The notes under the pieces: model-generated | Databases searched by the model: none | The model's input: the letters and a program-made list of their open reading frames with translations, nothing else | Told to the model about the DNA's origin: nothing | NCBI GenBank assembly: GCA_964490075.1 | Contig: CAZBBK010000014.1 | Coordinates: 1-64,000 of the forward strand | Direction: 5' to 3' | DNA: 64,000 bases | Origin: an uncultured Gemmatimonadota bacterium | GTDB taxonomy: Bacteria > GCA-2686955 | Shown here: piece by piece, positions 8,027-38,098 of the stretch | Position numbering within the stretch: the first letter of the stretch is position 1 | How the letters are laid out: each line of letters opens with the position of its first letter | Translations under genes and position numbers: made by a program

Positions 8027-9733
8027 TCAGTCCGAGGCGGGCCCGGCCTCGGGGCGCCCAAAGAGCCGGCCCTCCATCATCAGGTAGTCCATGCCCGATT
8101 CGACGAAGGTGCGGGCCGCCTGCGCGGCGCTCGGGACCATCGGCTGCCCGGCCCGGTTGAACGAGGTATTGAGCAGCACCGGAACACCGGTGAGGTCGGC
8201 GAAGGCCTCGATGATCGCATGGTAGGCCGGGTTGTCCTCGCGACGAACCGTCTGCAGCCGCGCGGTGCCGTCGACATGGGTGACGGCCGGGATCTGCTCG
8301 CGGCGCTCCTCGCGCACCGGCACCACCTGCAGCATGTGCGGCGAGGGCACGTCGGTCGCGAACCAATCGCCGGCCCGCTCCGCGAGCGCCACCGGCGCGA
8401 AGGGGCGGTAGCTTTCGCGCTTCTTGATCTTGTGGTTCAGGCGGTCCTTCATGTCGGCGCGCCGCGGATCGGCCAGGATCGACCGGTTGCCGAGCGCCCG
8501 CGGGCCGATCTCCATGCGCCCGTGAAACCACCCCAGGACCGCGCCCTCGGCCAACAGCCGTGCCGCCTCCTGGATCGTGTCGACGCCCTTGTGCTCCGGC
8601 AGCTTCCACTCCCGGGCGGCGGCATCGACCGATCCCCCCGCGACATTCGGTCCCAGGTAGACCGTGTCGAGCGCGCAGCGTTCGCCGGTCAGCTGGCCGC
8701 GCACGTGCAAGGCCGCGCCCAGCGAGCAGCCGGCGTCGTTGGCAGCCGGCTGGATGAACAGGTTTTCGAAGGGCGATTCGCGCTGGATTCTGCCGTTCAT
8801 CACACTGTTGAGCACCACCCCGCCCGCCAGGCAGAGGCTGGGGGTGCCGGTCTCTCGGTGCAGGTAGTCGGCCAGCTCCAGGCCGATCTCCTCGGTGCGC
8901 ATCTGCACGCTGGCGGCCAGGTCGGCGTGGTGGTCCTCGATCTCTCCCTCCCGTTGCCGTGCGGGGCCGAAGCGTTCCTCGAAGCGCGGCGAGAACCAGA
9001 GCATGGTGTCGCGGTGGAAGAGGAAGTAAGAGAGATCGAGGCGGAACTGCCCGGAGCCGATCCACGGCACGATCTCCCGAAAGGCCTCGATATGTCGGGC
9101 CTTTCCATAGGGGGCGAGCCCCATCACCTTGCCTTCGTGGGCGTTGTTGAGGTAGCCCAGGTACTCGGTCGCGGTGGCGTAGAGCAGACCGAGGGAATGG
9201 GGGAAGGGAACCTCCGTCAGCCGCGTCATGCGCGTTCCCTCACCGATTCCCAGCCAGGTCGTCGAGCGCTCGCCGTTGCCGTCGATGCACAGGATCGCGG
9301 CGCGCTCGAAGGGGGAGAGCAGAAAGGCCGATGCAGCGTGAGCGAGGTAGTGGTCGACCCAGTGAAATCGAAAGCGCAGGCGGCCAGAGGCGGCGAAGCG
9401 GCGCCGGATCTCCCGCTCCACGCGCAGGATCTTCCACCATTCCGAGCCGTAGTCGCCGGCCACGCCCTGCAACGATCCCGGCAGTCCCTTGACCAGCTCC
9501 ACGGCGCGCTTGCCGAGTCCCAGCCAGGGGTTGTAGTAGAACGCCACGTGGTCGATCTCTTCGATCCCGGTTCCGCCGATCTCCAGGCAGGCAGCGATCG
9601 CCCGCATCGGAAACGACCCGTCGTAGCGGATTCCGCTCAGCCGCTCCTCTTCGACGCTCGCGACCACCCCCGATTCGTCGACCAGGCTGGCGGAGGCGAA
9701 GTTGTGGTAGCAGTTGAGGCCCAGAATCCTCAT
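8027..9733 (-). CDS. O-carbamoyltransferase, CmcH/NodU/TobZ (SxtI-like) family, paralog 1
   Basis: EEERL, HYLAHAASAF, IDGNGE, HSLGLLY, EGKVMGLAPYG, LAGGVVLN, QPAANDAG, GPRALGNRSILADP, KKRESYRPFAP, HVDGTARLQ, LNTSFN. Confidence 0.95.
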   Translation of the reverse strand: MRILGLNCYHNFASASLVDESGVVASVEEERLSGIRYDGSFPMRAIAACLEIGGTGIEEIDHVAFYYNPWLGLGKRAVELVKGLPGSLQGVAGDYGSEWWKILRVEREIRRRFAASGRLRFRFHWVDHYLAHAASAFLLSPFERAAILCIDGNGERSTTWLGIGEGTRMTRLTEVPFPHSLGLLYATATEYLGYLNNAHEGKVMGLAPYGKARHIEAFREIVPWIGSGQFRLDLSYFLFHRDTMLWFSPRFEERFGPARQREGEIEDHHADLAASVQMRTEEIGLELADYLHRETGTPSLCLAGGVVLNSVMNGRIQRESPFENLFIQPAANDAGCSLGAALHVRGQLTGERCALDTVYLGPNVAGGSVDAAAREWKLPEHKGVDTIQEAARLLAEGAVLGWFHGRMEIGPRALGNRSILADPRRADMKDRLNHKIKKRESYRPFAPVALAERAGDWFATDVPSPHMLQVVPVREERREQIPAVTHVDGTARLQTVRREDNPAYHAIIEAFADLTGVPVLLNTSFNRAGQPMVPSAAQAARTFVESGMDYLMMEGRLFGRPEAGPASD

Positions 9734-12249
9734 TCCGGTCTTCTCCTCACAGGACGCGGCGGCACGAGTCCGATGTAGAGCGCGAGGGCCGTGAGCCCGG
9801 CGATCAGGGTGGTCCAGGCACCGACCTGGGCCGCCCGCGGACGGTACTCCAGCTCGACCTGGTGGCGGCCGCGTGCTAGCGGCAGCGCCTGAAAGATGTG
9901 GTTGGCGCGCCAGGCGCGGGTCTCCTCACCGTTCAGCCAGGCGCGCCATCCCGGCGCATCGGCTTCGGTGACCACCAGCCAGCTCGGCTCCTTGACCCGC
10001 GCATCGAGTCGAATGCGACCCGGCGCGTGGTCGATCTCGACCCATCCGGGAGCGGCCGGCGTCTCTTCGGCGGCGGCCGGCAGCCGAGGGGCGTCGGGTG
10101 TCACGACCACCACCTCGCGGGGATCGAACTCCGGGTCCGCGAGGAGCTCCAGGGTGGCCTCGCCCGGCGTCGCCCGCCGGGCTTCGGGCACCAGGAAGGC
10201 CCGCGGCAGCGCGCGTCGGTTTTCGTAGATCTTGATCTCTTCGTTGTAGGCCAGCTTCCAGTGCAGCAGAGGCGAATTGGCCGCCGCCAGGTCCCCCGAG
10301 GGGACGAATCGGGACGAGATGGCGAAGCGCACGCCGAGCAGGTCGAGGATCGGGCTGGCCAGGCTCTGGGCGTCGGGGAGGGCGATCACCTTCTTGAAGC
10401 CGACGAACATCTCGGGGTGGATGCGGGCCACCAGCTCGCCATAGGGCCGGGGCAGCAGGGCGTTCGAGCCATGGATGTCGGCTATCTCGAACACCTGCGC
10501 CGAGTTGGGCGGCAGCACCTCGCGGAAGCCGCCGTAGCGGGCAATCCTCGATCCCCGCGCATTCTGCGCCAGGAAGCGGATCGACTCCGGCACCTCCCGC
10601 GGGTAGAACTGGTCTTGAAAGATGAAGTAGCGGTGGGCCTCGGAGGCGATGTCGAGCGCGATCAGGTAGGCCGCGATTCCAACGAAGGCCCGCCGGTCGA
10701 TCAGCCGCACGCCGTAGAGCACCAGCAGCGCCACCGCCGCGCTCGAGAGGGCAAGAAAGACCAGCACCCGCTTCAGCCAGGTGTCGTAATTCCAGTAGAT
10801 GCGACGCCGAGCCAGGTCCCAGGCGGCTTGCCGGTTTTGCAGCCAGTCGGAGGAATGCACGACTGCCCGACCGCGATCCTGGAGCGCCTTCAAGCGTGCG
10901 TCGACGTCGTGCCGGGGCGGAACCACGATCGTCAGGATCACCGCGGCGAGGGCGGCCTGGAGCACCACCCAGCGCCCGGTGCGGCTCGGCCTCCGGCGCA
11001 GTAGGGCATCGACACCCAGCGCGCCCAGCATGGCGATCGCCGCCCCGTAGAGGTAGGTGACGCGACAGATGCGCGAGAACTTGAAGCCCGGCAGCAGCGC
11101 GTGGGCGATGCGGAAGGTCGGCCAGCCGAGCGTCAAGGTCACACTCAGCACGGCCATCGCCAGGAAGTAGAGGGTGAGCCTGGGGCGATCGCGCCGGATC
11201 AGCGCCGCGGCGCTCAGCACCAGGGGCAGGATCCCGACATAGGCCGAGTTCTCGAGATAGCTGTTGCGCCAGAAGTAGTCCTCGTAGACCTTCTCGCGCG
11301 TGGCCGAGCAGAACACCCCGAGCCAAGAGCGCGCCGGATCCCCGAAGAAGTCGGGAACCACGTAGCTCACCAGCGCCTCGAAGGGCAGGAAGATGGCGCG
11401 AAAGTCCTCGTAGGCGACCGCCTTGCGACCGCTGAAACGGCCCATTTCGGCCACCGGCAGGAGCTGGATCGCGGCCAGAACCAGGCCAAGCGCCAGGGCG
11501 CCGCCGATCAACGCGGCGGAGCCGAGGTCGCGCGACTCGCGCCAGCCGGCGAGACTCTTCGCCAGCGCATAGCCGACCACCGCGTAGAAGGCATAGACGG
11601 CGATCGGCGGGAATCCCCCCAGGATCGCCAGCGCCACGGTCGCCGCCAGGCAGGCCGCCGCCGCATGAGGGCGGTGGCCGCGGTGGATGCGCTCGATGAA
11701 GAGCAGGCTGGCGGGCAGCCAGATGCCTGAGTCGGGATTGGTGGGATTGACCAGGTGGGTGAGGATGAAGGGGTTGCCCTGGAAGATCAGTCCCCCGACC
11801 AGGGCCGCGCCGGGTCGCAGCCTGAGCTCGCGACAGAATGCGAAGGTGAAGGCGCCGGCCAGGAAGAGCTGCAGCCAGGCCAGACACGCCATGGCCTGCT
11901 CAGGGTCGAGATGCAGGTAGAGCAGATTGGGCGGATAGAAGAGGGCGGTGTGCGGATCGGCCTGGAAGGGCAGACCGGCGAAGTTCCAGGGATTCCAGAG
12001 CGGCACCCGACCCTGGCCGAGCTCCGAGCGGGCGAAGTGGCGGCGCGGGTAGAAGGTCAGCGTGCCGTCGGTTCCGGCGTTGTTCTGCTCTGCGCACTCG
12101 GCCGCCGCGCTCCACGGCAGGAACGCGTGCATGTCGTTGATCGCGAAGGTCTTGTCGCCGACCAGGGGGCCCCGCAGCAAGTAGAGTGCGAAGCCCGCCA
12201 GCACCAGCAGCGCCCCCGCGGTCGAAAGGTGCCGCCGCTCCCTACCCAA
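9730..12249 (-). CDS. YfhO-like GT-C-fold membrane glycosyltransferase
   Basis: PLWNPWNFAGLPFQADP, LFYPPN, many TM segments, YVGILP, C-terminal ADAPGWRA...ANHIFQAL...GRHQVELEYRP. The TTG start at 12249 (overlapping the upstream stop) is inferred. Confidence 0.8.
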   Translation of the reverse strand: MGRERRHLSTAGALLVLAGFALYLLRGPLVGDKTFAINDMHAFLPWSAAAECAEQNNAGTDGTLTFYPRRHFARSELGQGRVPLWNPWNFAGLPFQADPHTALFYPPNLLYLHLDPEQAMACLAWLQLFLAGAFTFAFCRELRLRPGAALVGGLIFQGNPFILTHLVNPTNPDSGIWLPASLLFIERIHRGHRPHAAAACLAATVALAILGGFPPIAVYAFYAVVGYALAKSLAGWRESRDLGSAALIGGALALGLVLAAIQLLPVAEMGRFSGRKAVAYEDFRAIFLPFEALVSYVVPDFFGDPARSWLGVFCSATREKVYEDYFWRNSYLENSAYVGILPLVLSAAALIRRDRPRLTLYFLAMAVLSVTLTLGWPTFRIAHALLPGFKFSRICRVTYLYGAAIAMLGALGVDALLRRRPSRTGRWVVLQAALAAVILTIVVPPRHDVDARLKALQDRGRAVVHSSDWLQNRQAAWDLARRRIYWNYDTWLKRVLVFLALSSAAVALLVLYGVRLIDRRAFVGIAAYLIALDIASEAHRYFIFQDQFYPREVPESIRFLAQNARGSRIARYGGFREVLPPNSAQVFEIADIHGSNALLPRPYGELVARIHPEMFVGFKKVIALPDAQSLASPILDLLGVRFAISSRFVPSGDLAAANSPLLHWKLAYNEEIKIYENRRALPRAFLVPEARRATPGEATLELLADPEFDPREVVVVTPDAPRLPAAAEETPAAPGWVEIDHAPGRIRLDARVKEPSWLVVTEADAPGWRAWLNGEETRAWRANHIFQALPLARGRHQVELEYRPRAAQVGAWTTLIAGLTALALYIGLVPPRPVRRRPE

Positions 12250-13909
12250 TGTAGCCCAGTCCCTTGAGTTGATCGGCGATGCGCCGCTGCTCCTCGTCGG
12301 TGGGCGACTCCCCCCGCGCGTCGCCCGGGCCGTAGTCTTCGCGTGTCTCGGGATGGGAGCGGCGGTGCTCATCGGTCAGCGCCTGGGAGATCACGCGCCC
12401 CTCCATCGAGGTGGCGACCGGCGCACCCAGGAGGTGCAGAAGGGTCGGGGCGACGTCGATCATGGAGGCAGTGTCGATGCGCTGGCCGCGGCGGATCGCA
12501 GGACCGGCCAGCACCATCATGCCGTTCATTCGGTGGTCGCCGCTCTGGCCGAAGTTGGGTCTCACGAAGCCCTTGGCGATGAAATCGAGAACTCCGAGCG
12601 CCTTGAAGCGCATGTCCTTGGGCAGCACCAGCACGTCGGGGGCCTGGTCGACGAAAGGACCGCCGTAGAGCTCTTCGCGGCGCCACACCGATTCGAAGAG
12701 AGGCTGATCGCCGCCCGGTTGGCGAAGTGCGCTGAGCTCTGCGATCAGCCGCTCGCGGGCCTCCTCGTACTGCGCTCCGGGATCGAGGATTCCGTGCGGC
12801 TCGCGGCCGCGCACGTTCATGTAGATCTGCCCGAAATTGCCCTTGCTGAAGGCGACGCTGCGGCTCCAGTCGACGTCGGCGAAGGAGAGGAAGAACTTCG
12901 ACACCCACGCGAGCAGGTCGTGACGGGAGCCGATGCCGCCGGAGTGGCGCAGGTGGCCGAGCCCCAACACGTCGGCGACCCGGTAGGCGCGCTCAGGCGT
13001 GAGTCCGAGCCGGAAGGCAGCCGCGCGCAGTCGCGACAACGCATGCTTGCGAAGCACCAGGAAGCCGCGCTCGAGCAGCCAGCAGTTGAGCACCAGGTAG
13101 TGGTGGATCGGCCCGAAGCCGTGGTCGGAGAGCAGGCAAAGCACCCCCTCGGGGCCCAGCCACTCCCGTACCTTGGGGATGGCGGCGTCCAGCTCGTCGA
13201 AGTAGTCGGCGACCGCCGGCGCCCAGCGCGACCCCTCGGCCGGATCGTGGGCCGGATGATCGGGATCGATGACGTGCCACAGCTCGTGCTGCAGGCGGTC
13301 GGAGCCGAACACATGGTGGATGGCCAGGTCCCAGTCGCGGGTGCGGGTCAGGTATTCGATCACGCCGAGCTTGTAGCGGAACACCTCGCGCGCCTCTTCC
13401 AGGACCTCGCCGATGCCGCCCTTGCGGTAGATCTTCTTGAAATGCAGGCGGTAGGGACCGAACTTCCCCTCCAGCTCGTCGAGCAGCTCGGGCGGCCAGG
13501 TCAGACGGCGGTCGCCCTGGGGAGCCAGGAAGTCGGAGACCAGGGCCCCCTCGATCGGCCGTGGCGGCCAGGTCGGCGGCAGGTTGACCACGATCGAGCG
13601 CAGCCCACGCTGGCCGGCCAGGTCCCAGATCGTTCGGCCCTGTACGGCTCGCGCCGACGCCGGCTCTTCGTGTAGAGCGGAATCGCGGCGCAGCAGGGTC
13701 ATGTCGAAGATGCCGTGGCTGCCCGGTCCAGTGCCGGTCGCGAACGACGTCCAGCTGGTGGCGGTGACCGGTGGGAACACGGTCGGCAGATGGCCCGAGC
13801 TGCCCTCCTCGATCAGGGCGCGCAGGTTGGGCAGCCGTCCCTGCTCCATCCACGGCTCGAGCATATCGAGCGAGACGCCGTCCCAGGCGAAGACGTAGAC
13901 GCGGCTCAT
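12242..13909 (-). CDS. Alkaline phosphatase superfamily (nucleotide pyrophosphatase/phosphodiesterase-like) protein
   Basis: FAWDG, PPVTATSWTSFATG (Thr nucleophile), HGIFD, DRLQHELW, LSDHGFG, SGDHR, DVAPTLL, C-terminal QLKGLGYIG. No signal peptide. Confidence 0.88.
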   Translation of the reverse strand: MSRVYVFAWDGVSLDMLEPWMEQGRLPNLRALIEEGSSGHLPTVFPPVTATSWTSFATGTGPGSHGIFDMTLLRRDSALHEEPASARAVQGRTIWDLAGQRGLRSIVVNLPPTWPPRPIEGALVSDFLAPQGDRRLTWPPELLDELEGKFGPYRLHFKKIYRKGGIGEVLEEAREVFRYKLGVIEYLTRTRDWDLAIHHVFGSDRLQHELWHVIDPDHPAHDPAEGSRWAPAVADYFDELDAAIPKVREWLGPEGVLCLLSDHGFGPIHHYLVLNCWLLERGFLVLRKHALSRLRAAAFRLGLTPERAYRVADVLGLGHLRHSGGIGSRHDLLAWVSKFFLSFADVDWSRSVAFSKGNFGQIYMNVRGREPHGILDPGAQYEEARERLIAELSALRQPGGDQPLFESVWRREELYGGPFVDQAPDVLVLPKDMRFKALGVLDFIAKGFVRPNFGQSGDHRMNGMMVLAGPAIRRGQRIDTASMIDVAPTLLHLLGAPVATSMEGRVISQALTDEHRRSHPETREDYGPGDARGESPTDEEQRRIADQLKGLGYIG

Positions 13910-14643
13910 CGGCGTCTTCCACGCCGCGGGCTCAGCTCTTCGAGGCGCAGCCGCAGCACCGCGAAGTAGCCGGTCAGGAGTTTCGCGAAGTTCAGGTTCG
14001 AGTTGCCGGCGCGGCGGTCGACGAAGCGGATCGGGATCTCGCCGATGGAGAGCTTGGCTCGATGGGCGCGGAAGAGCACCTCCTGTACGATCGCCGGACC
14101 GTGGCTGCGCAGCGACGCGGGGTCGATTGCCTCCAGCGCGGTGCGGCGATAGGCACGGAAGCCGGAGTTACAGTCTTGGACCTGGAGCCCGAGCGTTTCG
14201 CGCGTGAATCGGTTGGCGGCGCGGGTCAGGATCCGGCGGCCGGGGCCGCGGTCGGTGTCGCTGCCACCGTCTACGGCCCGCGATCCGAGCACCAGGTCGT
14301 GCTCATCCAGCGCCGCCACCAGGTCGGGGATGTGCACCGGATCGTGAGACAAATCGGCATCCATCTCGACGATCCGTTCGGCCCCCATCCTCAGTGCTTC
14401 GAGAAATCCGGCGCGCCCCGCCAGGCCGCGGCCGCGCGGTCCGCGCCGATGCATGAGGTGCAGATGGGGATCGTCACGCGCCAGCGAACGGACCAGCGAC
14501 CAGGTGTTGTCCGGCGAGTCGTCGTCGACCACCAGCACCTCGGCGGTGAAGGGGAGCGCGCGCAGCCGCTGCAGCAGCGGTCTCAGGTTCTCCCGCTCGT
14601 TGAAGGTGGGGACCACGACGACGGTTTTTGCCCCGTGGATCAT
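13906..14643 (-). CDS. GT2 polyprenol-phosphate glycosyltransferase (Ppm1/DPM1-like)
   Basis: VVVPTFNERENL, VVDDDSPD, EMDADLSHDP, VLGSR, DCNSGFRAY, EIPIRFVDRRAG. Confidence 0.92.
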   Translation of the reverse strand: MIHGAKTVVVVPTFNERENLRPLLQRLRALPFTAEVLVVDDDSPDNTWSLVRSLARDDPHLHLMHRRGPRGRGLAGRAGFLEALRMGAERIVEMDADLSHDPVHIPDLVAALDEHDLVLGSRAVDGGSDTDRGPGRRILTRAANRFTRETLGLQVQDCNSGFRAYRRTALEAIDPASLRSHGPAIVQEVLFRAHRAKLSIGEIPIRFVDRRAGNSNLNFAKLLTGYFAVLRLRLEELSPRRGRRR

Positions 14644-17726: not shown

Positions 17727-17845
17727 TCGCTGTCCTGAGCCTCCCCGTTTTCCACATCGCCCAGCGAGCGGAAAGCCTCGACGATCACCAGCACGAAGAG
17801 GATCCCGAGCAGTCCGACGAGCGTGTAGTAGAAGTAGATCGACAT
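17723..17845 (-). CDS. 40-aa single-pass membrane micropeptide (absent from the ORF track)
   Basis: Manual translation MSIYFYYTLVGLLGILFVLVIVEAFRSLGDVENGEAQDSE. One TM helix. Its TGA overlaps the TPR gene GTG. Confidence 0.6.
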   Translation of the reverse strand: MSIYFYYTLVGLLGILFVLVIVEAFRSLGDVENGEAQDSE

Positions 17846-29957: not shown

Positions 29958-31720
29958 GGCAGCTGGAACTCGAAGCAGCAGTCGTAGATGCACTCGATGG
30001 CGTCGGAGGGCTCACTCTTCGCCTGGGTGACGGCGACCACCACCATGCGCTCATGGAGATCGAAGAATATGTTGCGATGGACCAGCTCGGCCAGGGGCTC
30101 CAGGGAGATCGTCTGGCCGCGGTGCATCAGCGTGGCGGGTCCCAACTCGCCCTGGCGCAGGATCAGCGAGGTCAACAGGCTGTTGATGTTGGCGCCGTTG
30201 ATCAGCTTCTCTTCGAAGGGCGCCCGGTCGAGATACTTCATCACCACCGAATCGAGCTCCTCGATGTCGTCGATGCGTTGCAGGATCAGGTGCGTGGCCG
30301 CGGTGTCGAGCAGACGGTCGAGGAGCCGGTCGCGGCTGTAGGGTTGGGTGTAGTCGACATCGAAGAAGGTCGCGCCGCAGGTGGCGACGGAGCAGAAATC
30401 GACCATGACCACCGGGCAGAGGACCCGCATCGGCGCTGCGCCGGTCTCGTTCTCGGTCAGCCAGGCATCGCACGCGATGTAGCCGGCCATCGAAATCTGA
30501 TCGTACTTGTCGCGCAGAAACGACTCGTCGCCGACGTAACGCCGATAGTCTCCGAAGGCACCCCAGCGGCCGACCATGAGCAATCCCACGGCGATGCCCG
30601 GCCCGATCCAGGCCAGCACTCGCAGGCGCAACACCTTGAGCAGCACCTGCTCGGCCGTGAACACCATGAAGAGCAACAGCAGCCCGAGGCCGAAAAGGGT
30701 GTAGCGCAGGTCGGCCTCGTAGAAGGTGAAGGCCGCCGTATGCGCCACGAAGTAGAGATAGACCGGAGAGAAGCGCACGAAGCAGGCGGCCCCGAGTGCC
30801 AGCGCGATCGCCGCCCCTTGCCAGAAGGGTGTATCGGCGATCCGATTCAGGTCGAAGCTGCGGTAGAGCCAGCTGGTCTGGATGCTGTAGGGGGCGTCGA
30901 GATTGAGGATCGCCAGCATGGCGTTGCGCACCGTGTCGCGAAACACCGCGAGCAGGGGGCCGGAGTCTCCGGCGGCGAGCGCCGCCCACATGCTCTGCTG
31001 GTTGATCTGGCGATAGGCGAGATACTCGCCGGCGGAGCGGAACACTGGGATGCTGAGCAGCAAGAAGAGGACGAATCCGGTGCCGCAGACCAGCCAGTAG
31101 CGCCGCCAGAGACGCATCGCATCCGAGCCCCACCCGTCGCGGCGCCAGGTGCGAAATCCCAGCCAGAGCGTCGCGCAGGGAATGATGATCCCACTGATTC
31201 GGGTCAGGATGACCAGCGACGAGAGCACGCCGGCCACGACCATCAGGCGCCGCTCGCCGCGCCGCCAGCCGAGCGCCATTGCGTAGAGCGCCGCGAGGGT
31301 CAGGAAGATGTAGAGGATGTTGTACTGAATTGTGGAGGCGAAGCAGATGTCGAGCAGGCTGAGACACATCAACAGAGCCGCGCTGAGCGCCGCGAAGGTC
31401 GAGGTCACTTCGCGCCCGAGCAGGTAGAGCAAGACCACCGCTCCGACGCTCGACACCAGGGTGACGCTCTTGGCGAGCAATAGATTTTCCGGACCGAAGA
31501 GCAGCTCCAGGAGCGCCAGAAGCGCTACGTAGAACACTCCCTCGTCGTAGGTGAAAATGGTCATGATGTCGCCGGTCGCGATCCGCGCACCGATGAACCA
31601 GTACCAGTTCGACCCCTCGCTGAGCTCGGCGTTGAAGACCACCAGGCGGATCGCCAGCGCCGCCAGGCCGATCAGCAGCGGCACCGCGATGCGGCCCGCT
31701 CGGGACAAGAGGGGCGACAT
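29954..31720 (-). CDS. ArnT/PMT-like GT-C-fold glycosyltransferase
   Basis: ALAIRL leader, YDEGVFY, LYLLGR, ILTRISG, DLRYTL, multiple TMs. TGATG overlap with carbamoyltransferase 3. Confidence 0.72.
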   Translation of the reverse strand: MSPLLSRAGRIAVPLLIGLAALAIRLVVFNAELSEGSNWYWFIGARIATGDIMTIFTYDEGVFYVALLALLELLFGPENLLLAKSVTLVSSVGAVVLLYLLGREVTSTFAALSAALLMCLSLLDICFASTIQYNILYIFLTLAALYAMALGWRRGERRLMVVAGVLSSLVILTRISGIIIPCATLWLGFRTWRRDGWGSDAMRLWRRYWLVCGTGFVLFLLLSIPVFRSAGEYLAYRQINQQSMWAALAAGDSGPLLAVFRDTVRNAMLAILNLDAPYSIQTSWLYRSFDLNRIADTPFWQGAAIALALGAACFVRFSPVYLYFVAHTAAFTFYEADLRYTLFGLGLLLLFMVFTAEQVLLKVLRLRVLAWIGPGIAVGLLMVGRWGAFGDYRRYVGDESFLRDKYDQISMAGYIACDAWLTENETGAAPMRVLCPVVMVDFCSVATCGATFFDVDYTQPYSRDRLLDRLLDTAATHLILQRIDDIEELDSVVMKYLDRAPFEEKLINGANINSLLTSLILRQGELGPATLMHRGQTISLEPLAELVHRNIFFDLHERMVVVAVTQAKSEPSDAIECIYDCCFEFQLP

Positions 31721-33480
31721 CAAGGCTTCGCCAAGCGCGTGCCTTCCAGGTAGAGCACGTCGATTCCGGTTCCGGCGAAGCAGAGCAGGGCGTCGTCCGG
31801 CGAGCAGACGATCGGCTCTCCACGCACGTTGAAGCTGGTATTGAGCACCACGGGCGTTCCGCTGAGCTCGGCGAAGGCCGAGATCAGGCGATGGAAGAGC
31901 GGCGAGTCGTCGCGGTTCACGGTCTGCAGCCGCGCCGAGCCGTCGACATGGGTGACGGCCGGGATCTCGGTGCGTTTCTCCGCCCGAACCGGACAGATTT
32001 TGAGCATGAAGGGGGTCGGTCCCTCGATCTCGAAGTACTCGGCGGCGCGCTCTTCCAGCGCCGCCGGGGCAAAGGGCCGGAAGCCCTCGCGATGTTTGAC
32101 CCGAGCGTTGAGGTGGTCCTTCATCGTCGCCTGCCGCGGGTCGGCCAGGATCGAACGATGGCCGAGGGCCCGCGGACCAACCTCCATGCGGCCCTGGAAC
32201 CAGCCGACGATGCGTCCGGCGGCGATGTCGCGGGCCGCATGTTCGGCCGGCGTGTCGAGCGCTTCGATAGTCACGGAATCGAGCCTGGAGCGCTGCCGAT
32301 CGATCGCGGCGGCGACATCGGCCGCGGTCCAGGCCGGTCCCCAGGCGGCATGACCCAGGTGGCGCTGGGCGCCGGGACGCTGGAGTCGGAAATGGTGCAG
32401 CAGCAGCGCGCCACCGAGCGCGGTTCCGGCGTCGTTGGCGGCCGGCTGCACGTAGATCTCGTCGAAGGGCCCCTCGCGCACCAGGCGTCCGTTGGCGGCG
32501 CCGTTCAGGGCCACTCCGCCGGCCAGGCAGAGGCGTTTCAGTCCGGTGCGCCGCGCGAGCTCCGCGGCGAGGTGCAGGAAGATCGTCTCGGTATGGGCCT
32601 GCAGCGAGGCCGCCACGTCGTGGTGGTGATCGTCGAAGGGCCCCTCGGGTACCCGGCGCGGTCCGAAGCGCTCGATGAAGCGCTGCGTCACGTAGTCCTG
32701 CTTGCCCAGGTGGACGTCGAAATAGCGCATGTCGAGACGCAGCCGGAAGCCGGGACCGAGGCGCAGGATCTCGGCGAAGTCGTCGGCGTACTTCGGGCTG
32801 CCGTAGGGCGCCAGCCCCATCACTTTGCCCTCGCCGGAGTTCTCTTTGAAGCCGAGATACTCGGTCACGCAGAGGTAGAGCAACCCGAGGCTGTGGGGAT
32901 AGGCGATTCGCTCCAGCACCTCGTAGCGGTGGCCGCGGGCTCGCGCGGCGAGGGTGGTGTGGGCCTCGCCGTTGGCGTCGATGATCAGCACCGCCGCCTC
33001 GTCGAAGCCCGAAGGGCAGAATGCCGATGCGATGTGGGCGGCGTGGTGATCGGCGTAGTGGAACTTGCCCCGGAATCCGAGTGTTCGAAACTCGCGCTTG
33101 ACTCCGAGCATGCGTCGCAAGATGTCGGTTCGGCCCTCGCTGACTACCGGGCGCCCGGCGCTCGACGACGATTGCCCGGCTCCCGGCGTCAGCCTTGGCC
33201 ACCAGGCCGCCGCCTTGGCGAGGGCGGCGATCCAGGCCCGTTTGCTCAGCCCGCGCCAGGGTCGCCAGAAGTAGACCGCGTGGTCGACCTCGGCGAGTGT
33301 GATGCCGGCATCGGCCAGGAGTGCCTCGAGCGCCAGGCGAGGAAACGCGGACGTGTGTTTCTGGCGGGTGAAGCGTTCCTCTTCCACGAAGCCGGCGATC
33401 TCGCCGTCGCGCAAGAGGCAGACCGCACTGTCGTGCATGTGGCAGTTGACGCCCAGGATGTAGAGCGGGCGGTGTCTCAT
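31720..33480 (-). CDS. O-carbamoyltransferase, CmcH/NodU (SxtI-like) family, paralog 3
   Basis: ILGVNCHMHDSA, EEERFTRQKH, DHHAAHIASAF, HSLGLLY, EGKVMGLAPYG, QPAANDAG, GPRALGHRSILADP, LNTSFNVRGEPIV. Confidence 0.96.
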   Translation of the reverse strand: MRHRPLYILGVNCHMHDSAVCLLRDGEIAGFVEEERFTRQKHTSAFPRLALEALLADAGITLAEVDHAVYFWRPWRGLSKRAWIAALAKAAAWWPRLTPGAGQSSSSAGRPVVSEGRTDILRRMLGVKREFRTLGFRGKFHYADHHAAHIASAFCPSGFDEAAVLIIDANGEAHTTLAARARGHRYEVLERIAYPHSLGLLYLCVTEYLGFKENSGEGKVMGLAPYGSPKYADDFAEILRLGPGFRLRLDMRYFDVHLGKQDYVTQRFIERFGPRRVPEGPFDDHHHDVAASLQAHTETIFLHLAAELARRTGLKRLCLAGGVALNGAANGRLVREGPFDEIYVQPAANDAGTALGGALLLHHFRLQRPGAQRHLGHAAWGPAWTAADVAAAIDRQRSRLDSVTIEALDTPAEHAARDIAAGRIVGWFQGRMEVGPRALGHRSILADPRQATMKDHLNARVKHREGFRPFAPAALEERAAEYFEIEGPTPFMLKICPVRAEKRTEIPAVTHVDGSARLQTVNRDDSPLFHRLISAFAELSGTPVVLNTSFNVRGEPIVCSPDDALLCFAGTGIDVLYLEGTRLAKP

Positions 33481-35537
33481 TGCAGCTCGATCCATGTGTA
33501 GCTACGGCCGTTTCCGTTGGGGTCGCTGCCGTCGCTGGTAGAGAAGAACACCTTGCCCTGCCAGTGGCTGTAGCGCCCCCCCCCGGAGCGCCGGATCGCC
33601 TGGTGGCCCTGGTGGGCGGGCCCCAGCGGCACGTCGTCCTCCAGCAGCGCCAGCCGCGACCGGCCCACCCGATTTGGCTCGTCGCTCGGGACGTTGGCGG
33701 GGACGTCCATCACGTAGGAAGCACCGCCGTCGTGCGGAAAGTAGCCGTCGACGTCGCTGCCGCGGCGCAAGGGCTGGGAGCCGATTCTATAGACACGGAT
33801 CTCTGGATGGTGCACCGAGTAGTCGTAGGGCAGTGCCGGGAAGCGGGCGATCAGCGCGGTTCCCGGATGGGATTGGAGCTCGACATAAAAATTCCGATAG
33901 GGCCGAGTCTCGGGATTGCCGTACATCCACTGAGAGAGCACCACGTAGTCGGGCGCCAGGCGCAGCAAGGCGGGGAAGTCTCCTGTGTCGCGATTCGCGT
34001 GCAGCGCGTAAGTCTGGAGAACCATGTCGCGGGCGACCCGTGCCGCCATCTGTTCGGCAGCGTCGAGGCTCGTCGCGTCGAGCTCCAGGGCCATGATATG
34101 GCGCGGCTCGCACATGCCCTCCAGGTCGGACAAGATCTCGGTCGCGGCGCTGTCTGATTCACCCACCAACAAGAAGGGAACCCGCTTCACGAAAGGCCCG
34201 TACATCGGTTGCCCCTCGAGAAAGCTGAAGTTGGTGATTTGGTAGCGTTGGCCAGAAACCGACGGTCCGTACTCCCCGTTCGACTCCACGGCGATGGACG
34301 ATTCGACCGGAATATTGTCGCTGATCCAGCGCGATGCCACCAGCCGCGAATCGGGAGTGTGGAAGATCGTCTGCACCGTCGCCAGCGCCGGCAGAACCTC
34401 GGCCAGCGCGGCGGCCAGGAGCAGCGCCGTCAATCCCGCCCGTGTCCGCACCGGGAGGCGCCGAAAGGGAACCACCACCGCGCCCGCGGCCAGCACCAGC
34501 AGGATCGGCACGATCGGCAGGATGTAGCGCGGAACGCGCAATCCGAAGGACGACATCAGGCAGTAGAAGCCACCCAGCCACAGGGCGACGACCAGCGCGG
34601 CGCCGGGCCTGGATCTCACCATGAACCCAAAGCCCAGGGCGGCGAGGGCCATCAAACCGAATCCCATGTGGCGCCCCAGGAGGAAGAAGTACTCGCCGAG
34701 GGGCCGTGCGTCGCCGGTTCCGGTGTCGAGCGACACCACGCGCCCGAGGTTGCGTTGTAGCTCGGCCCAGGAGTCCTGGAAGTGGACCAGGAAGGCGAGG
34801 TTGATCAGCAGCACGGTGAAGGCGGCGAGGGCGGCGCCCGCCAGCACCGGCGCTCTCCAGGGCGGCGACCCACGCCGGGACCAGGCCCAGCCCAGCGCGC
34901 CGGCGTAGGGCAGGAGCAGCGCCACCGCGTTGTACTTCTGCGACATCGCCAGCCCCATCAAGAGCCCGGCCCGGAGATGATCGCGGGCGCCGCCGCGCTC
35001 GGCGACAGCCACCAGAGCGATCACCGCGGCGCTGCAGAGCAGCACGAAGAGGGCGTCGAGGGTGCCGTAGTGGGAGTGCTGCACGTGCAGCGGGTTGAGT
35101 GTGAGCAGGACACCGGCGATGAGTGCGGCACCCGCTCCTCCCGCCAGCTCGCGGCCGCGCCGCATGACCAGCCAGGCCGTGGCGCCGGCCGCCACGACCG
35201 ACACCATCCGCGCCAGCAGGTAGCGGGTGCCGGGGATCAGGTCGAGGAAGGAGTGGTAGTCGAGATCGCTCGCTATCCCGACCAGTCGGGCGCCCCAGAA
35301 GGTGATTCCGTTGAGGGCCGCCAGCAGATAGAGATGGAGCGCGGGGTAGCCCCAGTAGTGCGGATCGAGATCGGGCCAGATCTGTCCCGACTTGTTCCAG
35401 ACGCCGTACTCGTCGGCATGCCAGGCCCCCACCCACCCCTGATCGAGCGCGATGTTGAAGCCGATGCCGCTGGCGCGCAAGACCAGGGCGAGCGCCGCGA
35501 TTGCGATTGCGGCATATGTCGATCGGGCGATCCGCAG
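33477..35537 (-). CDS. ArnT-like GT-C glycosyltransferase with an extra C-terminal soluble module
   Basis: WHADE, DPHYWGYPALH, SHYGTLD, SQKYNA, VPRYILP, DSRLVASRWI. The start is uncertain; a CTG at 35537 follows GGAG by 7 nt. Confidence 0.8.
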   Translation of the reverse strand: MRIARSTYAAIAIAALALVLRASGIGFNIALDQGWVGAWHADEYGVWNKSGQIWPDLDPHYWGYPALHLYLLAALNGITFWGARLVGIASDLDYHSFLDLIPGTRYLLARMVSVVAAGATAWLVMRRGRELAGGAGAALIAGVLLTLNPLHVQHSHYGTLDALFVLLCSAAVIALVAVAERGGARDHLRAGLLMGLAMSQKYNAVALLLPYAGALGWAWSRRGSPPWRAPVLAGAALAAFTVLLINLAFLVHFQDSWAELQRNLGRVVSLDTGTGDARPLGEYFFLLGRHMGFGLMALAALGFGFMVRSRPGAALVVALWLGGFYCLMSSFGLRVPRYILPIVPILLVLAAGAVVVPFRRLPVRTRAGLTALLLAAALAEVLPALATVQTIFHTPDSRLVASRWISDNIPVESSIAVESNGEYGPSVSGQRYQITNFSFLEGQPMYGPFVKRVPFLLVGESDSAATEILSDLEGMCEPRHIMALELDATSLDAAEQMAARVARDMVLQTYALHANRDTGDFPALLRLAPDYVVLSQWMYGNPETRPYRNFYVELQSHPGTALIARFPALPYDYSVHHPEIRVYRIGSQPLRRGSDVDGYFPHDGGASYVMDVPANVPSDEPNRVGRSRLALLEDDVPLGPAHQGHQAIRRSGGGRYSHWQGKVFFSTSDGSDPNGNGRSYTWIELQ

Positions 35538-35582
35538 AGCCGGACTCCGGATGGAAGCTGATTGGAGTACAAGACTTTGCGA

Positions 35583-35611
35583 AGAATATGGAGGGGGGGG
35601 GTGGGCGTCAA
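35583..35611 (-). promoter_or_regulatory. Sigma70-type promoter with a C9 homopolymer in the spacer
   Basis: Minus strand TTGACG (35611-35606), 17-nt spacer containing C9 (G9 at 35593-35601 on +), TATTCT (35588-35583). Confidence 0.6.
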
Positions 35612-35689
35612 GGAGGACGGGATCCGGATGCGGGGCGGCACTCCCGCCCCAAGTCTGGCCTTTGTGCCCACCCCTGCTATGCTCCGGCC

Positions 35690-35932
35690 ATGGCTTCCGG
35701 GAGACTCCGCTCCGCATGGCTGCGCTTCAAGGCGCGGGCCGAGGCGCTGCGGCTGCGCATCGCCTCGGCGCAGACCACGGTGTTGATCGTCATCGGCTAC
35801 TTCCTGGTGCTGGGGCCGATCGCGCTGATCTGGCGCCGTTTCGTGCCCGATCCGCTGGGCGAGTCGGGCACGGGATGGACCGAGCGACCCGAGCTGCCGC
35901 GCGACCTCGAATCGCACCGGCGGCAGTACTGA
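35690..35932 (+). CDS. SxtJ-like small membrane protein (80 aa)
   Basis: MASGRLRSAWLRF...TTVLIVIGYFLVLGPIALIWRRFVPDPL...GWTER...RRQY matches the W..F..TM-P-I..R...DPL...W..R...RQ[FY] pattern. Extended -10 TGCTATGCT just upstream. Confidence 0.75.
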   Translation: MASGRLRSAWLRFKARAEALRLRIASAQTTVLIVIGYFLVLGPIALIWRRFVPDPLGESGTGWTERPELPRDLESHRRQY

Positions 35933-35935
35933 TCG

Positions 35936-38098
35936 ATGCGGCGGCGGTCGAGCCGCGCGCTGCGGGTGGGCGCGTGTATCTGGTTGGCGCTGCTGGTGGC
36001 GGTCACGCTGAGCGGGCGGCGCGACGCCTTGGCCGCGGCCGGTTACGCGTTGGGACCGCTGCTGCTGCTGGCCGCCGGGGCCTGGCTGGCGGAGCCGCCG
36101 CGCGAGGCGCCGATCGCGAAGCCGCCCGCGTTCCGCGGGGTCTGGATCGGCGCGGTGGCGGTGGGGCTCTGCGGCCTGGCCCTGGTGCGCTTCGGCCGTG
36201 GGCTCGACGGGGCCTTCATCTGGGACGACCTGCGCCATCTCTCGTGGGGAGTCGACCTGGTCGAGAACCGGTCGTGGGCGACGCTCTGGAAGTACTTGAG
36301 CGAGAACCAGGGCAGCATGTACCGGGCCCTGCCCAGCCTGATGGCCGGGGTCGACTATGCGCTCTGGGGGGCCGATTCGCGTGGCTGGCACGCCACCACG
36401 CTGTTCTTTCACGTCGGTGCCGCCTTCTGGATCTACCTGCTGGGGTGTCGACTGCTCTCCGATCGGAGGGCGGCGCTCTTCGCGGCCGCGGCGCTCCTGA
36501 TCTACCCGCTGGCGACCGACTGTGCCTTGTGGATCACTCTGCGCGAAGAGGGAATGTGCCTCTTCTTCTACAGCTTGAGCTGCGTGCTCTATCTGCGCGG
36601 AGTGCCGGCGGGGGAGGAGGGGGCGCGGGCGATGCGCGCGGCGGCGGTCGCGGCCACGTGTGCGGCGCTCTTCAGCAAGGAGCTGGCGGTGACTCTGCCG
36701 GCGGCGCTGTGGCTGCTCGGGGGGGCGCTCGGCGAGTCGCGGCGCCGGCGCCTGGTGCACCTGGCGCCGCACGTGGCGGCGGTGGTGCTCTTCGGCTGGG
36801 CGCGCACCGTGGTGCACGGCGGGGTGGTGGCCGGGTTGTCGAGCGCGGAGGGGGAGTCCTACGGGTCGCTGGGCGGCTACTTCGCCTCTCTGCCCGCGAT
36901 CGTGGCCTACTTCTTCGGTCCTTTCCTGCAGATGCTCTTGATCCCCTTCGAGCGCGGTCTCGGGGGGATGATCGCCGATCGCGCGCTGTGGACCGAGGCG
37001 GCGATCGTCGCCGCCCTGGTCGCGGCGCTGCTGCGGCCCGGAGCGTTGCCCCACGGGCACCGGCGCGCCATCGTGGCGCTGGCGGTGTTGGTTGGGGTGA
37101 TGGCGCTGCCGGTGCTGCCGCATATCGCCCAGGAGGGGCTGGCGCTTTCGGAACACCGGCGCTACTACCTGCCGGCCGCGCCTCTGATGCTGCTGCTGGC
37201 CGCGCTCCTGGTGGCCGGACGTTCGCGGCGCGCGGCATGGGTGGGAGCGGGCGCGGTGTTGCTGCCGTATGGGATCTTCGGCGAGGGCTACGTGGAGGAA
37301 TGGGTGCGCATCGGCGATGCGCGGAGGCGTCTCGAGCAGGATCTGGTGGCGTTGGTCGAATCACACCCGGAGCTGCGCACCCTCTACTTCACCCGCGACT
37401 CCACCTCCGAAGCGGCGGAGGCAGCGGCACAGTACTTCCGCTGGGTCGCGCCCCGGCCGCTCAGCGCGGTGGCGCTCCATCCGGGGAACCGCAGCGCCTG
37501 GTTCTCCTCGCGCGAGGGCGATCCGGCTCCGCCCCTGGACGAGCTCGGCGGGGTCGACTGGGGCGGCGCCGCGCGCCTGGTGCGCTGGCGGATCGATCGC
37601 TCGGGCGTCGAGGATTGCACCGGCGCGCTGCGCGCCGCCCTGGCGCACCAGGCCCGGCCCCGTATCAGCCCCGCCGGTGCGCGGCGCTGGCCGGCGCTGG
37701 AGCACTGGGAGGCGGCTGAGTGCAGCGCGGGCGCGGCGCGCCTGGAGGGTGGCGAATGGCGTTTGGGGGGCGAGCTGGCCTGTCGCGTCCAGGTGCGGAT
37801 GACGCCGGTCGCCGCCGCCGACGTTGCCGCGGTGAGGGTTCGGGCGCGCGCATCGGAGACGGCGACGCTGCGTTTTCACTGGGCGATCGACGGCCGCTGG
37901 GAGGACCACCTCCTGGAGCGCGAGCTGCCAGCGGGCGCGGGGAGTGTCGCCACCTTCCGCCTCGACGACGTGCCGATCTGGCTGATGGCCGGCAAGGTCG
38001 AGGCGGTGGCGCTGAGCGCCAAGCCGGGGGCGCAAGTGTGGCTCGAGAGCCTGGATGTGGTGCTGGCGGCGGGGCCCATGGTGCCGGGAAAGCCCTGA
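35936..38098 (+). CDS. TMTC-like GT-C-fold membrane glycosyltransferase with a C-terminal beta-sandwich
   Basis: FIWDD, MYRALP, WHATTLFFH, WITLREE, LFSKE, EHRRYYLP. Confidence 0.75.
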   Translation: MRRRSSRALRVGACIWLALLVAVTLSGRRDALAAAGYALGPLLLLAAGAWLAEPPREAPIAKPPAFRGVWIGAVAVGLCGLALVRFGRGLDGAFIWDDLRHLSWGVDLVENRSWATLWKYLSENQGSMYRALPSLMAGVDYALWGADSRGWHATTLFFHVGAAFWIYLLGCRLLSDRRAALFAAAALLIYPLATDCALWITLREEGMCLFFYSLSCVLYLRGVPAGEEGARAMRAAAVAATCAALFSKELAVTLPAALWLLGGALGESRRRRLVHLAPHVAAVVLFGWARTVVHGGVVAGLSSAEGESYGSLGGYFASLPAIVAYFFGPFLQMLLIPFERGLGGMIADRALWTEAAIVAALVAALLRPGALPHGHRRAIVALAVLVGVMALPVLPHIAQEGLALSEHRRYYLPAAPLMLLLAALLVAGRSRRAAWVGAGAVLLPYGIFGEGYVEEWVRIGDARRRLEQDLVALVESHPELRTLYFTRDSTSEAAEAAAQYFRWVAPRPLSAVALHPGNRSAWFSSREGDPAPPLDELGGVDWGGAARLVRWRIDRSGVEDCTGALRAALAHQARPRISPAGARRWPALEHWEAAECSAGAARLEGGEWRLGGELACRVQVRMTPVAAADVAAVRVRARASETATLRFHWAIDGRWEDHLLERELPAGAGSVATFRLDDVPIWLMAGKVEAVALSAKPGAQVWLESLDVVLAAGPMVPGKP

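Follow-up and report, generated by a model that had tools for sequence, protein, structure and literature searches.

What might a bacterium do with three carbamoyltransferases (CTs) encoded among enzymes that transfer sugars outside the cytoplasm? The question is raised by a locus in the draft genome of an uncultured Gemmatimonadota bacterium (5.7 Mb, 136 contigs, 95% complete), which we analyzed within a window consisting of the first 64,000 nucleotides of one contig (C14:1-64000). Here, between selB and ahcY, CTs of the NodU/CmcH type lie in operons with a polyprenol-phosphate sugar synthase-like enzyme of the GT2 family and glycosyltransferases of the GT-C fold, and they are accompanied by a microprotein of the DUF5989 family. 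We read this as a composite locus with a role in envelope modification, an interpretation that in our estimate stands about evenly between right and wrong.

Genes were called with a codon-usage caller trained on the bacterium's own genome (G000) and compared with Pfam and NCBIfam, with 25 open reading frames (ORFs) in the main Pfam scan. Four relatives from a sparsely sampled lineage (G001-G004) served for comparison: three genomes of the same family, among them G002 and G003, and one of the same class (G004). On one flank of the locus lies selB (6078-8003, minus strand) and on the other ahcY with an ArsR-methyltransferase fusion (38465-40725; AdoHcyase at 38465-39775), a bracket also found in the same-family relatives. 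GC content stays between 0.65 and 0.75 across the whole window and so gives no compositional signal of an island. The genes form four operons on both strands. As claimed in a preliminary description of this DNA, many are joined by ATGA or GTGA overlaps; these 4-nt overlaps occupy 9 of the 14 same-strand junctions, including those from YfhO to CT1 and from GTC_c to CT3. The gene list in that description largely holds up, with Pfam matches for three CTs, the GT2 enzyme, two anchored SGNH proteins, two half-FGE proteins, HEAT and TPR proteins, and DUF5989, but its SxtJ-like protein is weak (negative for PF19588), and it passed over a PF01663 phosphodiesterase (12242-13909), an OmpA/Pal-like lipoprotein (18043-18603), and a small peptide (17723-17875). 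The island (8027-38098, about 30 kb) makes up 0.53% of the genome, yet it contains 3 of the 10 CT matches and 3 of the 19 PMT_2 matches, as well as 2 of 23 FGE, 2 of 26 GDSL, and 1 of 4 DUF5989 matches. By hand arithmetic, each family is 14- to 57-fold denser here than across the whole genome, and a hand estimate puts the chance that three of ten randomly placed genes fall within 25.5 kb somewhere in 5.7 Mb at ~0.007.

What is conserved at the center of the locus is the association of a CT with a GT2 enzyme and a GT-C. In G002 and G003 the locus is compact, reading AdoHcyase-GTC_c-CT3-FGE2, then the OmpA/Pal-like lipoprotein, then sTM-TPR-GT2-AlkP-YfhO-CT1-SelB, at 40-90% identity. The order GT2-AlkP-YfhO-CT1-SelB is the same in these two genomes (74-80% identity) and in G004 (41-54%). 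In the window, the corresponding operon runs along the minus strand from sTM, a peptide of 40-50 aa with a single transmembrane (TM) segment whose gene has a GTGA overlap with the next (17723-17875), through a large TPR protein of ~1028 aa that matches many TPR Pfam families (14640-17726), the GT2 enzyme (13906-14643), an AlkP-superfamily type I phosphodiesterase or nucleotide pyrophosphatase-like protein (PF01663; 12242-13909), and the YfhO-type GT-C (9730-12204; alternative start 12372), to CT1 (8027-9733), the last gene of this class-conserved operon. Orthologues of CT1 are 79-80% identical in G002 and G003 and 46% in G004, and those of AlkP 76-77% and 43%, both with gene order kept; the figures for YfhO are 74-75% and 41-42%. 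The TPR protein has orthologues of 51-55% identity in G002 and G003, and sTM, which matches no Pfam or NCBIfam family, is 85% identical over 40 aa in both.

A second conserved operon, also on the minus strand, carries GTC_c (33477-35480; the longest ORF runs to 35717), CT3 (31720-33480), and FGE2 (26591-28255, with the start at 28255 or 28213), a probable lipoprotein with a C-terminal half-FGE domain. CT3 orthologues are 76% identical in G002 and G003, where relatives of GTC_c (40-67%) adjoin them and FGE2 orthologues (59%) directly follow. On the syntenic contigs of the same two genomes, tblastn found no match to GTC_a, GTC_b, CT2, SGNH2, the HEAT protein, the HEAT-SGNH protein, FGE1, DUF5989, an 80-aa ORF, or MEM. 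The parts that recall the saxitoxin (sxt) cluster are additions seen only in the bacterium's own genome, and gain here or loss in the relatives are both possible.

The sugar-transferring enzymes give the locus its envelope glycosylation context, as the preliminary description had proposed from a GT2 enzyme like polyprenol-phosphate sugar synthases and five GT-Cs. The GT2 gene has ATGA overlaps on both sides, and its product matches Glycos_transf_2 at 93.6 bits; the nearest NCBIfam families, all partial matches, are the ArnC type (the best, 60.7 bits), AglJ, PgfS, PpgS, and dolichyl-phosphate hexose transferase. The YfhO-type GT-C, with 8 hydrophobic segments, scores 52.5 bits against Pfam YfhO (cut-off 28.5) and weakly matches NCBIfam PgfM1 and PgfM2. 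Two further GT-Cs are recognized through Pfam: GTC_a (28245-29957, minus strand; 8 hydrophobic segments) by PMT_2 at 53.3 bits and PMT at 36.3 bits, and GTC_c by PMT_2 at 42.2 bits. GTC_b (29954-31720, minus strand; 10 hydrophobic segments) is a probable GT-C that falls on either side of the PMT_2 cut-off of 26.1 bits, at 23.5 bits as a protein and 27.4 bits in a six-frame search. The frames scanned with Pfam extended to 29993 for GTC_a, 31723 for GTC_b, and 33495 for CT3.

The fifth member, MEM (35936-38098, plus strand), has no Pfam match and was identified by its fold. In its AlphaFold2 model the TM part lies mostly at a confidence (pLDDT) of 70-90 and the C-terminal third is unreliable; a Foldseek search with it returned nothing but GT-C enzymes in the top 29 rows (ArnT, STT3, AglB, Pmt4, AftB, DPY19, and PglB), with a best E value of 1.4e-4 and a TMt of 0.48 for ArnT. 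In the Atlas cluster of look-alikes, 24% of the members carry PMT_2. MEM has six paralogues in its own genome and seven relatives at E<=1e-5 in a large protein search. A phmmer search of MEM and GTC_b against solved structures returned nothing at E<=1, and hhalign comparisons among shallow alignments of the window's GT-C groups were weak (best P 4e-4). Two of the MEM paralogues (C95:3757-6614 and C51:20997-25261) are separated by only a few kb from half-FGE domains of the kind found in FGE1 and FGE2, and gene context of this kind suggests that GT-Cs and FGE-like proteins form a recurrent pairing.

GT-C genes adjoin CT genes elsewhere as well. A PMT_2 protein directly follows a CT at three loci (L088, L123, and L126), and at a fourth (L125) the protein directly after the CT is a YfhO with 30% identity to that of the window. 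Polytopic proteins of 619-715 aa without a Pfam family also occur one to three genes from CTs (L081, L131, L117, L100, L057, and L058), in metagenome-assembled genomes from Anaerolineae, Chloroflexia, and other groups; these may be further, unrecognized GT-C partners.

We propose that the locus couples glycosylation from lipid-linked sugars to cytoplasmic carbamoylation and has acquired an added membrane-docked module, a scheme that we consider as apt to be right as to be wrong. The GT2 enzyme would load a sugar onto polyprenol phosphate at the inner membrane face. The CTs have no hydrophobic segments, predicted TM segments, or signal peptides, and a soluble cytoplasmic CT (CT1, or CT3 in the second conserved operon) would use carbamoyl phosphate and ATP to O-carbamoylate the lipid-linked sugar or a nucleotide precursor. 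The lipid-linked sugar would then be flipped across the membrane, and a GT-C, either the YfhO type or the PMT_2-type GTC_c, would move the sugar to an acceptor outside the cytoplasm, perhaps a polymer, a lipid, or a protein. To this the bacterium's own genome would add GTC_a, GTC_b, MEM, and a second carbamoylation gear: CT2 would dock on DUF5989 and a truncated SxtJ-like protein and so work at the membrane surface, and two anchored periplasmic SGNH enzymes, with HEAT, TPR, and FGE-like partners, would remove, move, or pass on the ester-linked group. The substrate, the order of the steps, the role of AlkP, and all of the SGNH chemistry are what we infer here. Protein O-glycosylation would also fit the PMT_2-type GT-Cs, MEM, and the TPR and HEAT partners. 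Teichoic acid is an unlikely acceptor because the organism seems to be diderm, judging by the OmpA/Pal-like lipoprotein. This putative peptidoglycan-binding protein (18043-18603, plus strand, from a six-frame reading) matches NCBIfam families of the YiaD/Pal/OmpA type at 75-98 bits, under their equivalog cut-offs, and its orthologues are 75% identical and occupy the same place in G002 and G003.

Several known systems resemble parts of this scheme. In the Arn pathway for lipid A aminoarabinose (ArnC/ArnD/ArnT), a polyprenol-phosphate sugar made by a GT2 enzyme is tailored in the cytoplasm before a GT-C transfers it outside; in the window the tailoring enzyme would instead be a CT, and its GT-Cs are likened to that pathway via PMT_2 and fold only. 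Similar in gene order are the CsbB/YfhO-type systems (GtrB/GtrC and PgfS/PgfM), described as three-component glycosylation (PMC5836110, PMC8035078), in which, as here, a GT2 gene sits beside a YfhO-family GT-C in one operon. Among these systems, the nearest partial NCBIfam matches are to PgfS for the window's GT2 enzyme and to PgfM1/PgfM2 for its YfhO. Unlike those systems, the window has no match to a GtrA/GtcA-like flippase, and a CT and an AlkP-type phosphodiesterase are conserved in its operon; a literature search for YfhO joined with a carbamoyltransferase found only unrelated genome papers. For the carbamoylation step, the precedent is WapO (PA5005), a putative CT of the NodU/CmcH family reported to carbamoylate heptose of the Pseudomonas lipopolysaccharide core (PMC8005017). 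Like the CTs of the window, it would act on an envelope sugar, but it belongs to a cytoplasmic core-oligosaccharide assembly cluster, and the available text of that report does not mention GT-C, SxtJ, DUF5989, or SGNH partners (PMC8005017).

The added module points to a different and much more widespread gene set. DUF5989 (PF19451) matches in 142 of the 401 genomes we sampled but in none of 14 model organisms. We fetched ±7 kb around DUF5989 from 40 diverse genomes and found a CT within that distance, mostly within 0.5 kb, at 32 of the 40 loci. A membrane protein of ~135 aa, defined de novo, is likewise present at 32; this family is Pfam SxtJ (PF19588), and an NCBI record names a homologue of the G004 member "SxtJ family membrane protein." Beyond this trio, blastp clustering of the 40 loci gave no neighbor family in more than six, and the eight loci that lack a CT have mixed contexts, with no alternative acyl-activating enzyme adjoining the microprotein. 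A Pfam tally of 225 flanking genes was led by Lipase_GDSL_2 and sugar-nucleotide epimerase/dehydratase (9 each), followed by Polysacc_synt_2 (7), GT1 (4), and PMT_2 (3). The preliminary description had expected CT, SxtJ, DUF5989, SGNH, and GT-C families to co-occur across genomes. This is borne out for CT and SxtJ-like proteins at DUF5989 loci, and membrane-anchored SGNH proteins are enriched near them, with nine among those 225 genes and homologues at 20 of 120 loci overall. GT-Cs next to CTs are rare.

The trio is also visible from the side of the CTs. CT3's 80 nearest relatives, identified in a search of 185,579 species' genomes, come from many phyla at 38-48% identity, and their loci include DUF5989 in 31 cases, SxtJ in 34, and both in 29. 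In a tree of 40 CTs, the trio-linked CTs and the own genome's SxtJ-adjacent CT form a clade (SH-aLRT 99); CT2 (24912-26630, plus strand) belongs with the trio-linked CTs in a 33-row clade (SH-aLRT 98), and CT1 and CT3 fall outside it. All three match Carbam_trans_N (196-264 bits) and Carbam_trans_C (241-248 bits) far above the cut-offs: 196 and 241 bits, respectively, for CT1, 263.5 and 247.7 for CT2, and 213 and 241.8 for CT3, whose gene is joined to GTC_c by an ATGA overlap and to GTC_b by a 1-nt overlap. None of the three is NodU itself, since the NCBIfam NodU equivalog gives 165-204 bits against a cut-off of 1000. A histidine cluster (H125, H126, and H129 in trio numbering), which we take to be that of the Kae1-like domain, is invariant in 29 trio CTs and fully kept in CT2 and CT3; in CT1 only the middle histidine is changed, to tyrosine. 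Of 132 columns invariant in those 29 CTs, CT2 keeps 119, CT3 105, and CT1 100. The losses in CT1 and CT3 are concentrated in one segment, residues ~66-108 of the reference, which is deleted or rewritten: its invariant positions show 7-9 changes or partial deletion in CT1 and CT3, the deletion in CT1 lying inside the segment, as opposed to a single change in CT2.

A structural model gives this segment a possible function. We modeled the canonical trio of G004, with the CT (592 aa) as partner of SxtJ (138 aa) and DUF5989 (52 aa), from our own alignments. The complex reached an interface score (ipSAE) of 0.79, against 0.01 for the best of three controls; the mark applied here is one that 58 of 80 solved complexes attain, as do 2 of 110 mismatched pairs, a calibration that is rough for three chains and our own alignments. 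Runs agreed in at least 91% of contacts, and the partner's pLDDT was at least 87. The modeled interface involves CT residues 69-123, 168-176, and 221-232, residues 3-36 of DUF5989, and the last TM segment and C-terminal tail of SxtJ (82-138), and on the CT it takes in the segment in which trio CTs differ from CT1 and CT3. The model supports docking of the CT on SxtJ and DUF5989 at the membrane, with CT2 predicted to be the only docking-competent CT of the island. For the preliminary suggestion of an SxtI-J-K-L-like module that serves the GT-Cs, this cuts both ways: CT2 keeps the docking segment, but the CTs coupled to GT-Cs, CT1 and CT3, have no predicted one.

In the window, the trio's parts are present in scattered and partly reduced form. 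DUF5989 (18616-18789, minus strand), similar in size to SxtK, scores 48.5 bits as a protein and 47.5 bits in a six-frame search (cut-off 27), and its gene has an ATGA overlap with that of FGE1. Pfam and NCBIfam scans had shown no SxtJ, and PF19588, a 99-position model, matched nothing in the whole genome at E<=1; we built a hidden Markov model (HMM) from 32 SxtJ-family neighbors, ORFs lying between CT and DUF5989. Run over 66,177 six-frame ORFs of the genome, it gave four matches. The best (C2:3502-3873, E 1.7e-10) is directly upstream of a CT, two others adjoin CTs on contig C1 (E 0.004 and 0.013), and the remaining one, an ORF of the window (35459-35929, plus strand), matches over its last 57 residues only (E 8.8e-4). 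From its ATG, this "mini-SxtJ" (35690-35932) is 80 aa long, comprises one TM segment and the conserved tail, which is the part of SxtJ that contacts the CT in the model, and stops 3 nt before the start of MEM. It is possibly a truncated SxtJ, although its membership in the family fails under the curated Pfam model. CT2 is 6.1 kb away from DUF5989 and 9 kb from mini-SxtJ, whose distance to CT3 is 2.2 kb.

The likeness to SxtI-J-K-L is accordingly partial. The window shares with it a CT of the trio type (CT2), DUF5989, and GDSL/SGNH proteins, and the sizes of sxtJ (405 nt) and sxtK (165 nt), as given in the consulted part of the cluster description (PMC2679770), match SxtJ- and DUF5989-type genes; SxtK and DUF5989 are equated on size and position only. 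These shared parts are not core, since CT2, both SGNH genes, DUF5989, and mini-SxtJ went unmatched in the compact loci of G002 and G003, and they do not neighbor one another as in canonical trios, being dispersed over four operons, with an SxtJ-like gene that is truncated and misses the Pfam model. The window also differs in that two of its three CTs are non-docking and coupled to GT-Cs, in a setting of envelope glycosylation and not alkaloid synthesis. Elsewhere in the own genome (C18:34600-38650), a ~1230-aa DUF3604/CARDB/TPR protein is immediately followed by an 83-aa DUF5989 protein with a long N-terminal extension, a pair kept in two relatives (G002:C172 and G003:C443). In G003, that DUF5989 gene lies directly upstream of a GTC_b-like GT-C gene (31-33% identity to GTC_b), and in G002 the divergent neighbor is a GTC_c-like gene.

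DUF5989 itself offers a more specific lead. Its members are ~50 aa long, with a basic N-terminal stretch, one TM segment, a linker of ~8 residues, and F-x-Y-x-x-F at the extreme C terminus, which in the window reads F-F-Y-A-L-F. All 35 aligned rows have F47, Y49, and F52, and two further sets of sequences show the motif in 40 of 40 and 27 of 31 members, with the tyrosine kept in all 31; two divergent copies in the own genome (C1:170000-210000) end instead in F-I/L-Y-A-G-V. The membrane microprotein DltX carries an invariant tyrosine in a C-terminal FXYXXF "acyl shuttle" motif, and this tyrosine is described as taking D-Ala from the MBOAT protein DltB and giving it to the catalytic serine of the SGNH protein DltD; PatA has the same motif and auto-acetylates its tyrosine (PMC12148441, in the portion available). 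The DltX proteins that we collected at 22 loci within a single class, representing 18 unique sequences, have the same size, single TM segment, and linker of ~8 residues, and end in F-I/V-Y-N-x-F. An hhalign comparison of the DUF5989 and DltX families aligns them end to end over 46 columns (local P 8.9e-5, probability 60%). The real score was reached by 0 of 100 full column permutations, 1 of 100 within-block permutations, and 7 of 100 within-block permutations that kept the motif, and without the last six columns the P value is 0.0059. A DUF5989 profile found nothing in a single DltX sequence, and the Pfam DltX model (PF12459), run on DUF5989-bearing genomes, matched no DUF5989 protein and gave 0 candidates in the own genome. 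DltX was matched in 6 of the 401 genomes (2 over the cut-off), versus the 142 with DUF5989. The likeness lies in architecture and motif and does not establish common descent.

The window shares with Dlt and PatA-PatB this ~50-aa single-TM microprotein with its C-terminal motif, anchored SGNH proteins with Ser and Asp-x-x-His, and a donor activated by a cytoplasmic ATP-using enzyme. It differs in having no MBOAT or carrier protein, and the group would be carbamoyl and not acyl. The SGNH proteins of the window lie in the DUF5989 operon on the minus strand, from which CT2 diverges. SGNH2 (23444-24787; alternative start 24880) is anchored by an N-terminal TM segment (at residue 5 of the short form) and matches Lipase_GDSL_2 at 53.8 bits; a HEAT-repeat protein follows (22110-23447; HEAT_2 177 bits, ATGA or GTGA overlaps on both sides), and then a HEAT-TM-SGNH-TPR protein with a signal peptide and a TM segment near residue 406 (19594-22113; Lipase_GDSL_2 53.2 bits, also HEAT_2 and TPR). 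Both of these putative enzymes keep GGS and D-x-x-H on reading the sequence. The HEAT-SGNH protein belongs to the same SGNH family as trio-linked SGNH proteins, and none of 40 relatives has a close orthologue of it, the best reaching 34% identity across the SGNH part. SGNH homologues of the window type occur at the 20 of 120 CT/DUF5989 loci already mentioned; 18 of 21 have a TM segment in the first 45 residues, and one small genome (L052) encodes SGNH-DUF5989-CT-SxtJ consecutively on one strand. FGE1 (18786-19559, minus strand), a secreted protein with a signal-like N-terminal hydrophobic segment and a C-terminal half-FGE domain, also belongs to this operon; it and FGE2, which has a signal-like N terminus with a cysteine, match FGE-sulfatase at 98.9 and 73.3 bits, only over profile positions ~90-255 of 255, and are not full FGE-sulfatase domains. 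In an unrelated genome (L033:5661-7167), a HEAT-repeat protein lies directly upstream of DUF5989 with overlapping frames and no CT nearby, an arrangement reminiscent of the DUF5989 operon in the window with its HEAT genes.

How far do these data favor lipid-linked glycosylation with cytoplasmic carbamoylation? Several of them weigh against it. The GT2 enzyme's NCBIfam scores (41-61 bits) are far below all of the equivalog cut-offs (325-529 bits). No flippase family (GtrA/GtcA, Wzx, or ArnE/F-like) was reported by Pfam or NCBIfam among the called genes, although three small membrane proteins remain in the locus, and the route by which carbamoyl groups would be delivered across the membrane to glycans built by GT-Cs, as first suggested, was not identified. 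AlkP (Phosphodiest 121.6 bits, with neither signal peptide nor TM segment seen) finds no place in the proposed pathway, and its presence may be less specific because the PF01663 family is abundant in the lineage, with 36 tblastn matches in G001 and 39 in G004. A GT-C directly follows the CT in just 4 of 80 CT loci by Pfam. For the added module, CT2, DUF5989, and mini-SxtJ are spread 6-17 kb apart in different operons, the complex was modeled with proteins of G004 and not of the window, and a pure tether role leaves the invariant tyrosine of DUF5989, in its outer C-terminal motif, unexplained. That tyrosine motif and the recurrent anchored SGNH proteins are the strong points of a second possibility, a Dlt/Pat-like shuttle without MBOAT, in which carbamoyl would pass from docked CT2 to the tyrosine of DUF5989, then to the SGNH serine, and on to glycans built by GT-Cs. 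In DltX and PatA the tyrosine of such a motif is acylated, as far as the cited account goes (PMC12148441), and the end-to-end alignment that no full permutation equaled, the docking model, the recurrence of anchored SGNH proteins with the L052 operon as its clearest case, and the catalytic motifs kept by both SGNH proteins all agree with it. However, the tyrosine lies beyond the TM segment, on the side opposite the cytoplasmic CT, and only residues 3-36 of DUF5989 touch the CT in the model; no conduit across the membrane was identified, there being neither MBOAT nor AT3, and SxtJ has no invariant polar residue (only W70, L86, and P96 are nearly invariant). The nulls that keep the motif reach the DltX score too often, the score drops once the last six columns are removed, and the Pfam DltX model passes DUF5989 by. 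SGNH proteins are near only about a fifth of trio loci, and the saxitoxin case of SxtI/J/K concerns a small molecule, according to the part of the description consulted (PMC2679770). The idea of an MBOAT-free pathway thus gains a DltX-type motif at the outer end of DUF5989 but still wants a membrane-crossing step, and we consider the shuttle less likely than not. Its generalization, that DUF5989, a docked CT, SxtJ, and SGNH proteins make up a third machine for acylating envelope polymers, working through a tyrosine O-carbamate beside the MBOAT-SGNH and AT3-SGNH machines, seems to us similarly doubtful.

Two other explanations would detach the parts from envelope glycosylation or from one another. 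The selB-ahcY gap might simply have collected insertions that act on different substrates. This genome has expanded sets of all the families concerned (10 CT, 19 PMT_2, 23 FGE, and 26 GDSL matches), which also counts against our own interpretation, and the genes are split among four operons that use both strands. Three stretches found no match in the compact loci of G002 and G003, namely that from CT2 to DUF5989, the pair GTC_a and GTC_b, and mini-SxtJ with MEM, so that the versions differ by three or more insertions or deletions. Against this stand the 14- to 57-fold enrichment, the fact that the inserted genes come from the same few families as the conserved core, the similar mix at 170-210 kb of contig C1 (two CTs, two DUF5989 copies, SGNH-TPR, Phosphodiest, and FGE proteins), and the adjacency of DUF5989 to GT-C genes in relatives; we consider an accidental collection improbable. 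Alternatively, the locus could direct the synthesis of a small molecule or glycolipid that bears carbamoyl groups, a natural-product-like role comparable to that of sxt. CTs of the NodU/CmcH type tailor antibiotics, and SxtJ- and SxtK-sized genes and GDSL proteins are present; saxitoxin is tailored by such a CT too, in the part of the cluster description available (PMC2679770). Yet Pfam and NCBIfam scans of ~20 called genes reported no polyketide synthase, nonribosomal peptide synthetase, Wzx, Wzy, or MBOAT, in agreement with the preliminary description, and no amidinotransferase or other scaffold-building family either. Five GT-Cs and the polyprenol-phosphate synthase-like GT2 enzyme point to transfer outside the cytoplasm, and an OmpA-like lipoprotein and secreted FGE, HEAT, and TPR proteins are conserved inside the locus. 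A small-molecule cluster is accordingly very unlikely in our view.

Lipid-linked glycosylation with cytoplasmic carbamoylation, if correct, would bear on a modification whose genetics is known for few steps. O-carbamoyl groups on envelope sugars are known, their genetics only for a few cytoplasmic steps, and the pairing of a CT with a GT-C and a GT2 enzyme predicts carbamoylated lipid-linked sugars as donors outside the cytoplasm. In a literature search outside the subscription journals, we found no paper on a pathway with such a donor, none mentioning DUF5989, none joining the acyl shuttle with a carbamoyltransferase, and none joining carbamoyltransferase, SGNH, and MBOAT. The locus is real, partly conserved, and an unusual combination of known parts, and the DUF5989 lead is apparently unpublished. 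The CT-SxtJ-DUF5989 trio, whose small members have carried the label "unknown" ever since the description of the saxitoxin cluster, gains a testable mechanism in docking plus an outer DltX-like tyrosine motif. Were the shuttle true, it would extend the acyl-shuttle principle of Dlt and PatAB, free of MBOAT, to a new chemical group, would explain DUF5989 in about a third of sampled genomes and with it a very widespread, unrecognized machine, and would make the window a lineage-specific merger of that machine with GT-C glycosylation.

The remaining observations concern the wider distribution of these families. CTs are expanded throughout the lineage, with 10 Carbam_trans_N matches in the own genome and 9, 9, and 10 tblastn matches to CT1 in G002, G003, and G004. 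Stop-to-stop frames of ~1000 aa at the relatives' CT genes had at first looked like fusion proteins; they resolved into separate genes. Other CTs of the own genome adjoin sulfatases, B12-radical SAM enzymes, a formyltransferase-GT2 fusion, or a Wzx/GT4 polysaccharide cluster. The C1 locus (170000-210000; L005 and L006), finally, holds two CTs, several sulfatases and Phosphodiest proteins, two QueC-like genes, two SGNH-TPR proteins, a half-FGE protein, and the two divergent DUF5989 copies.

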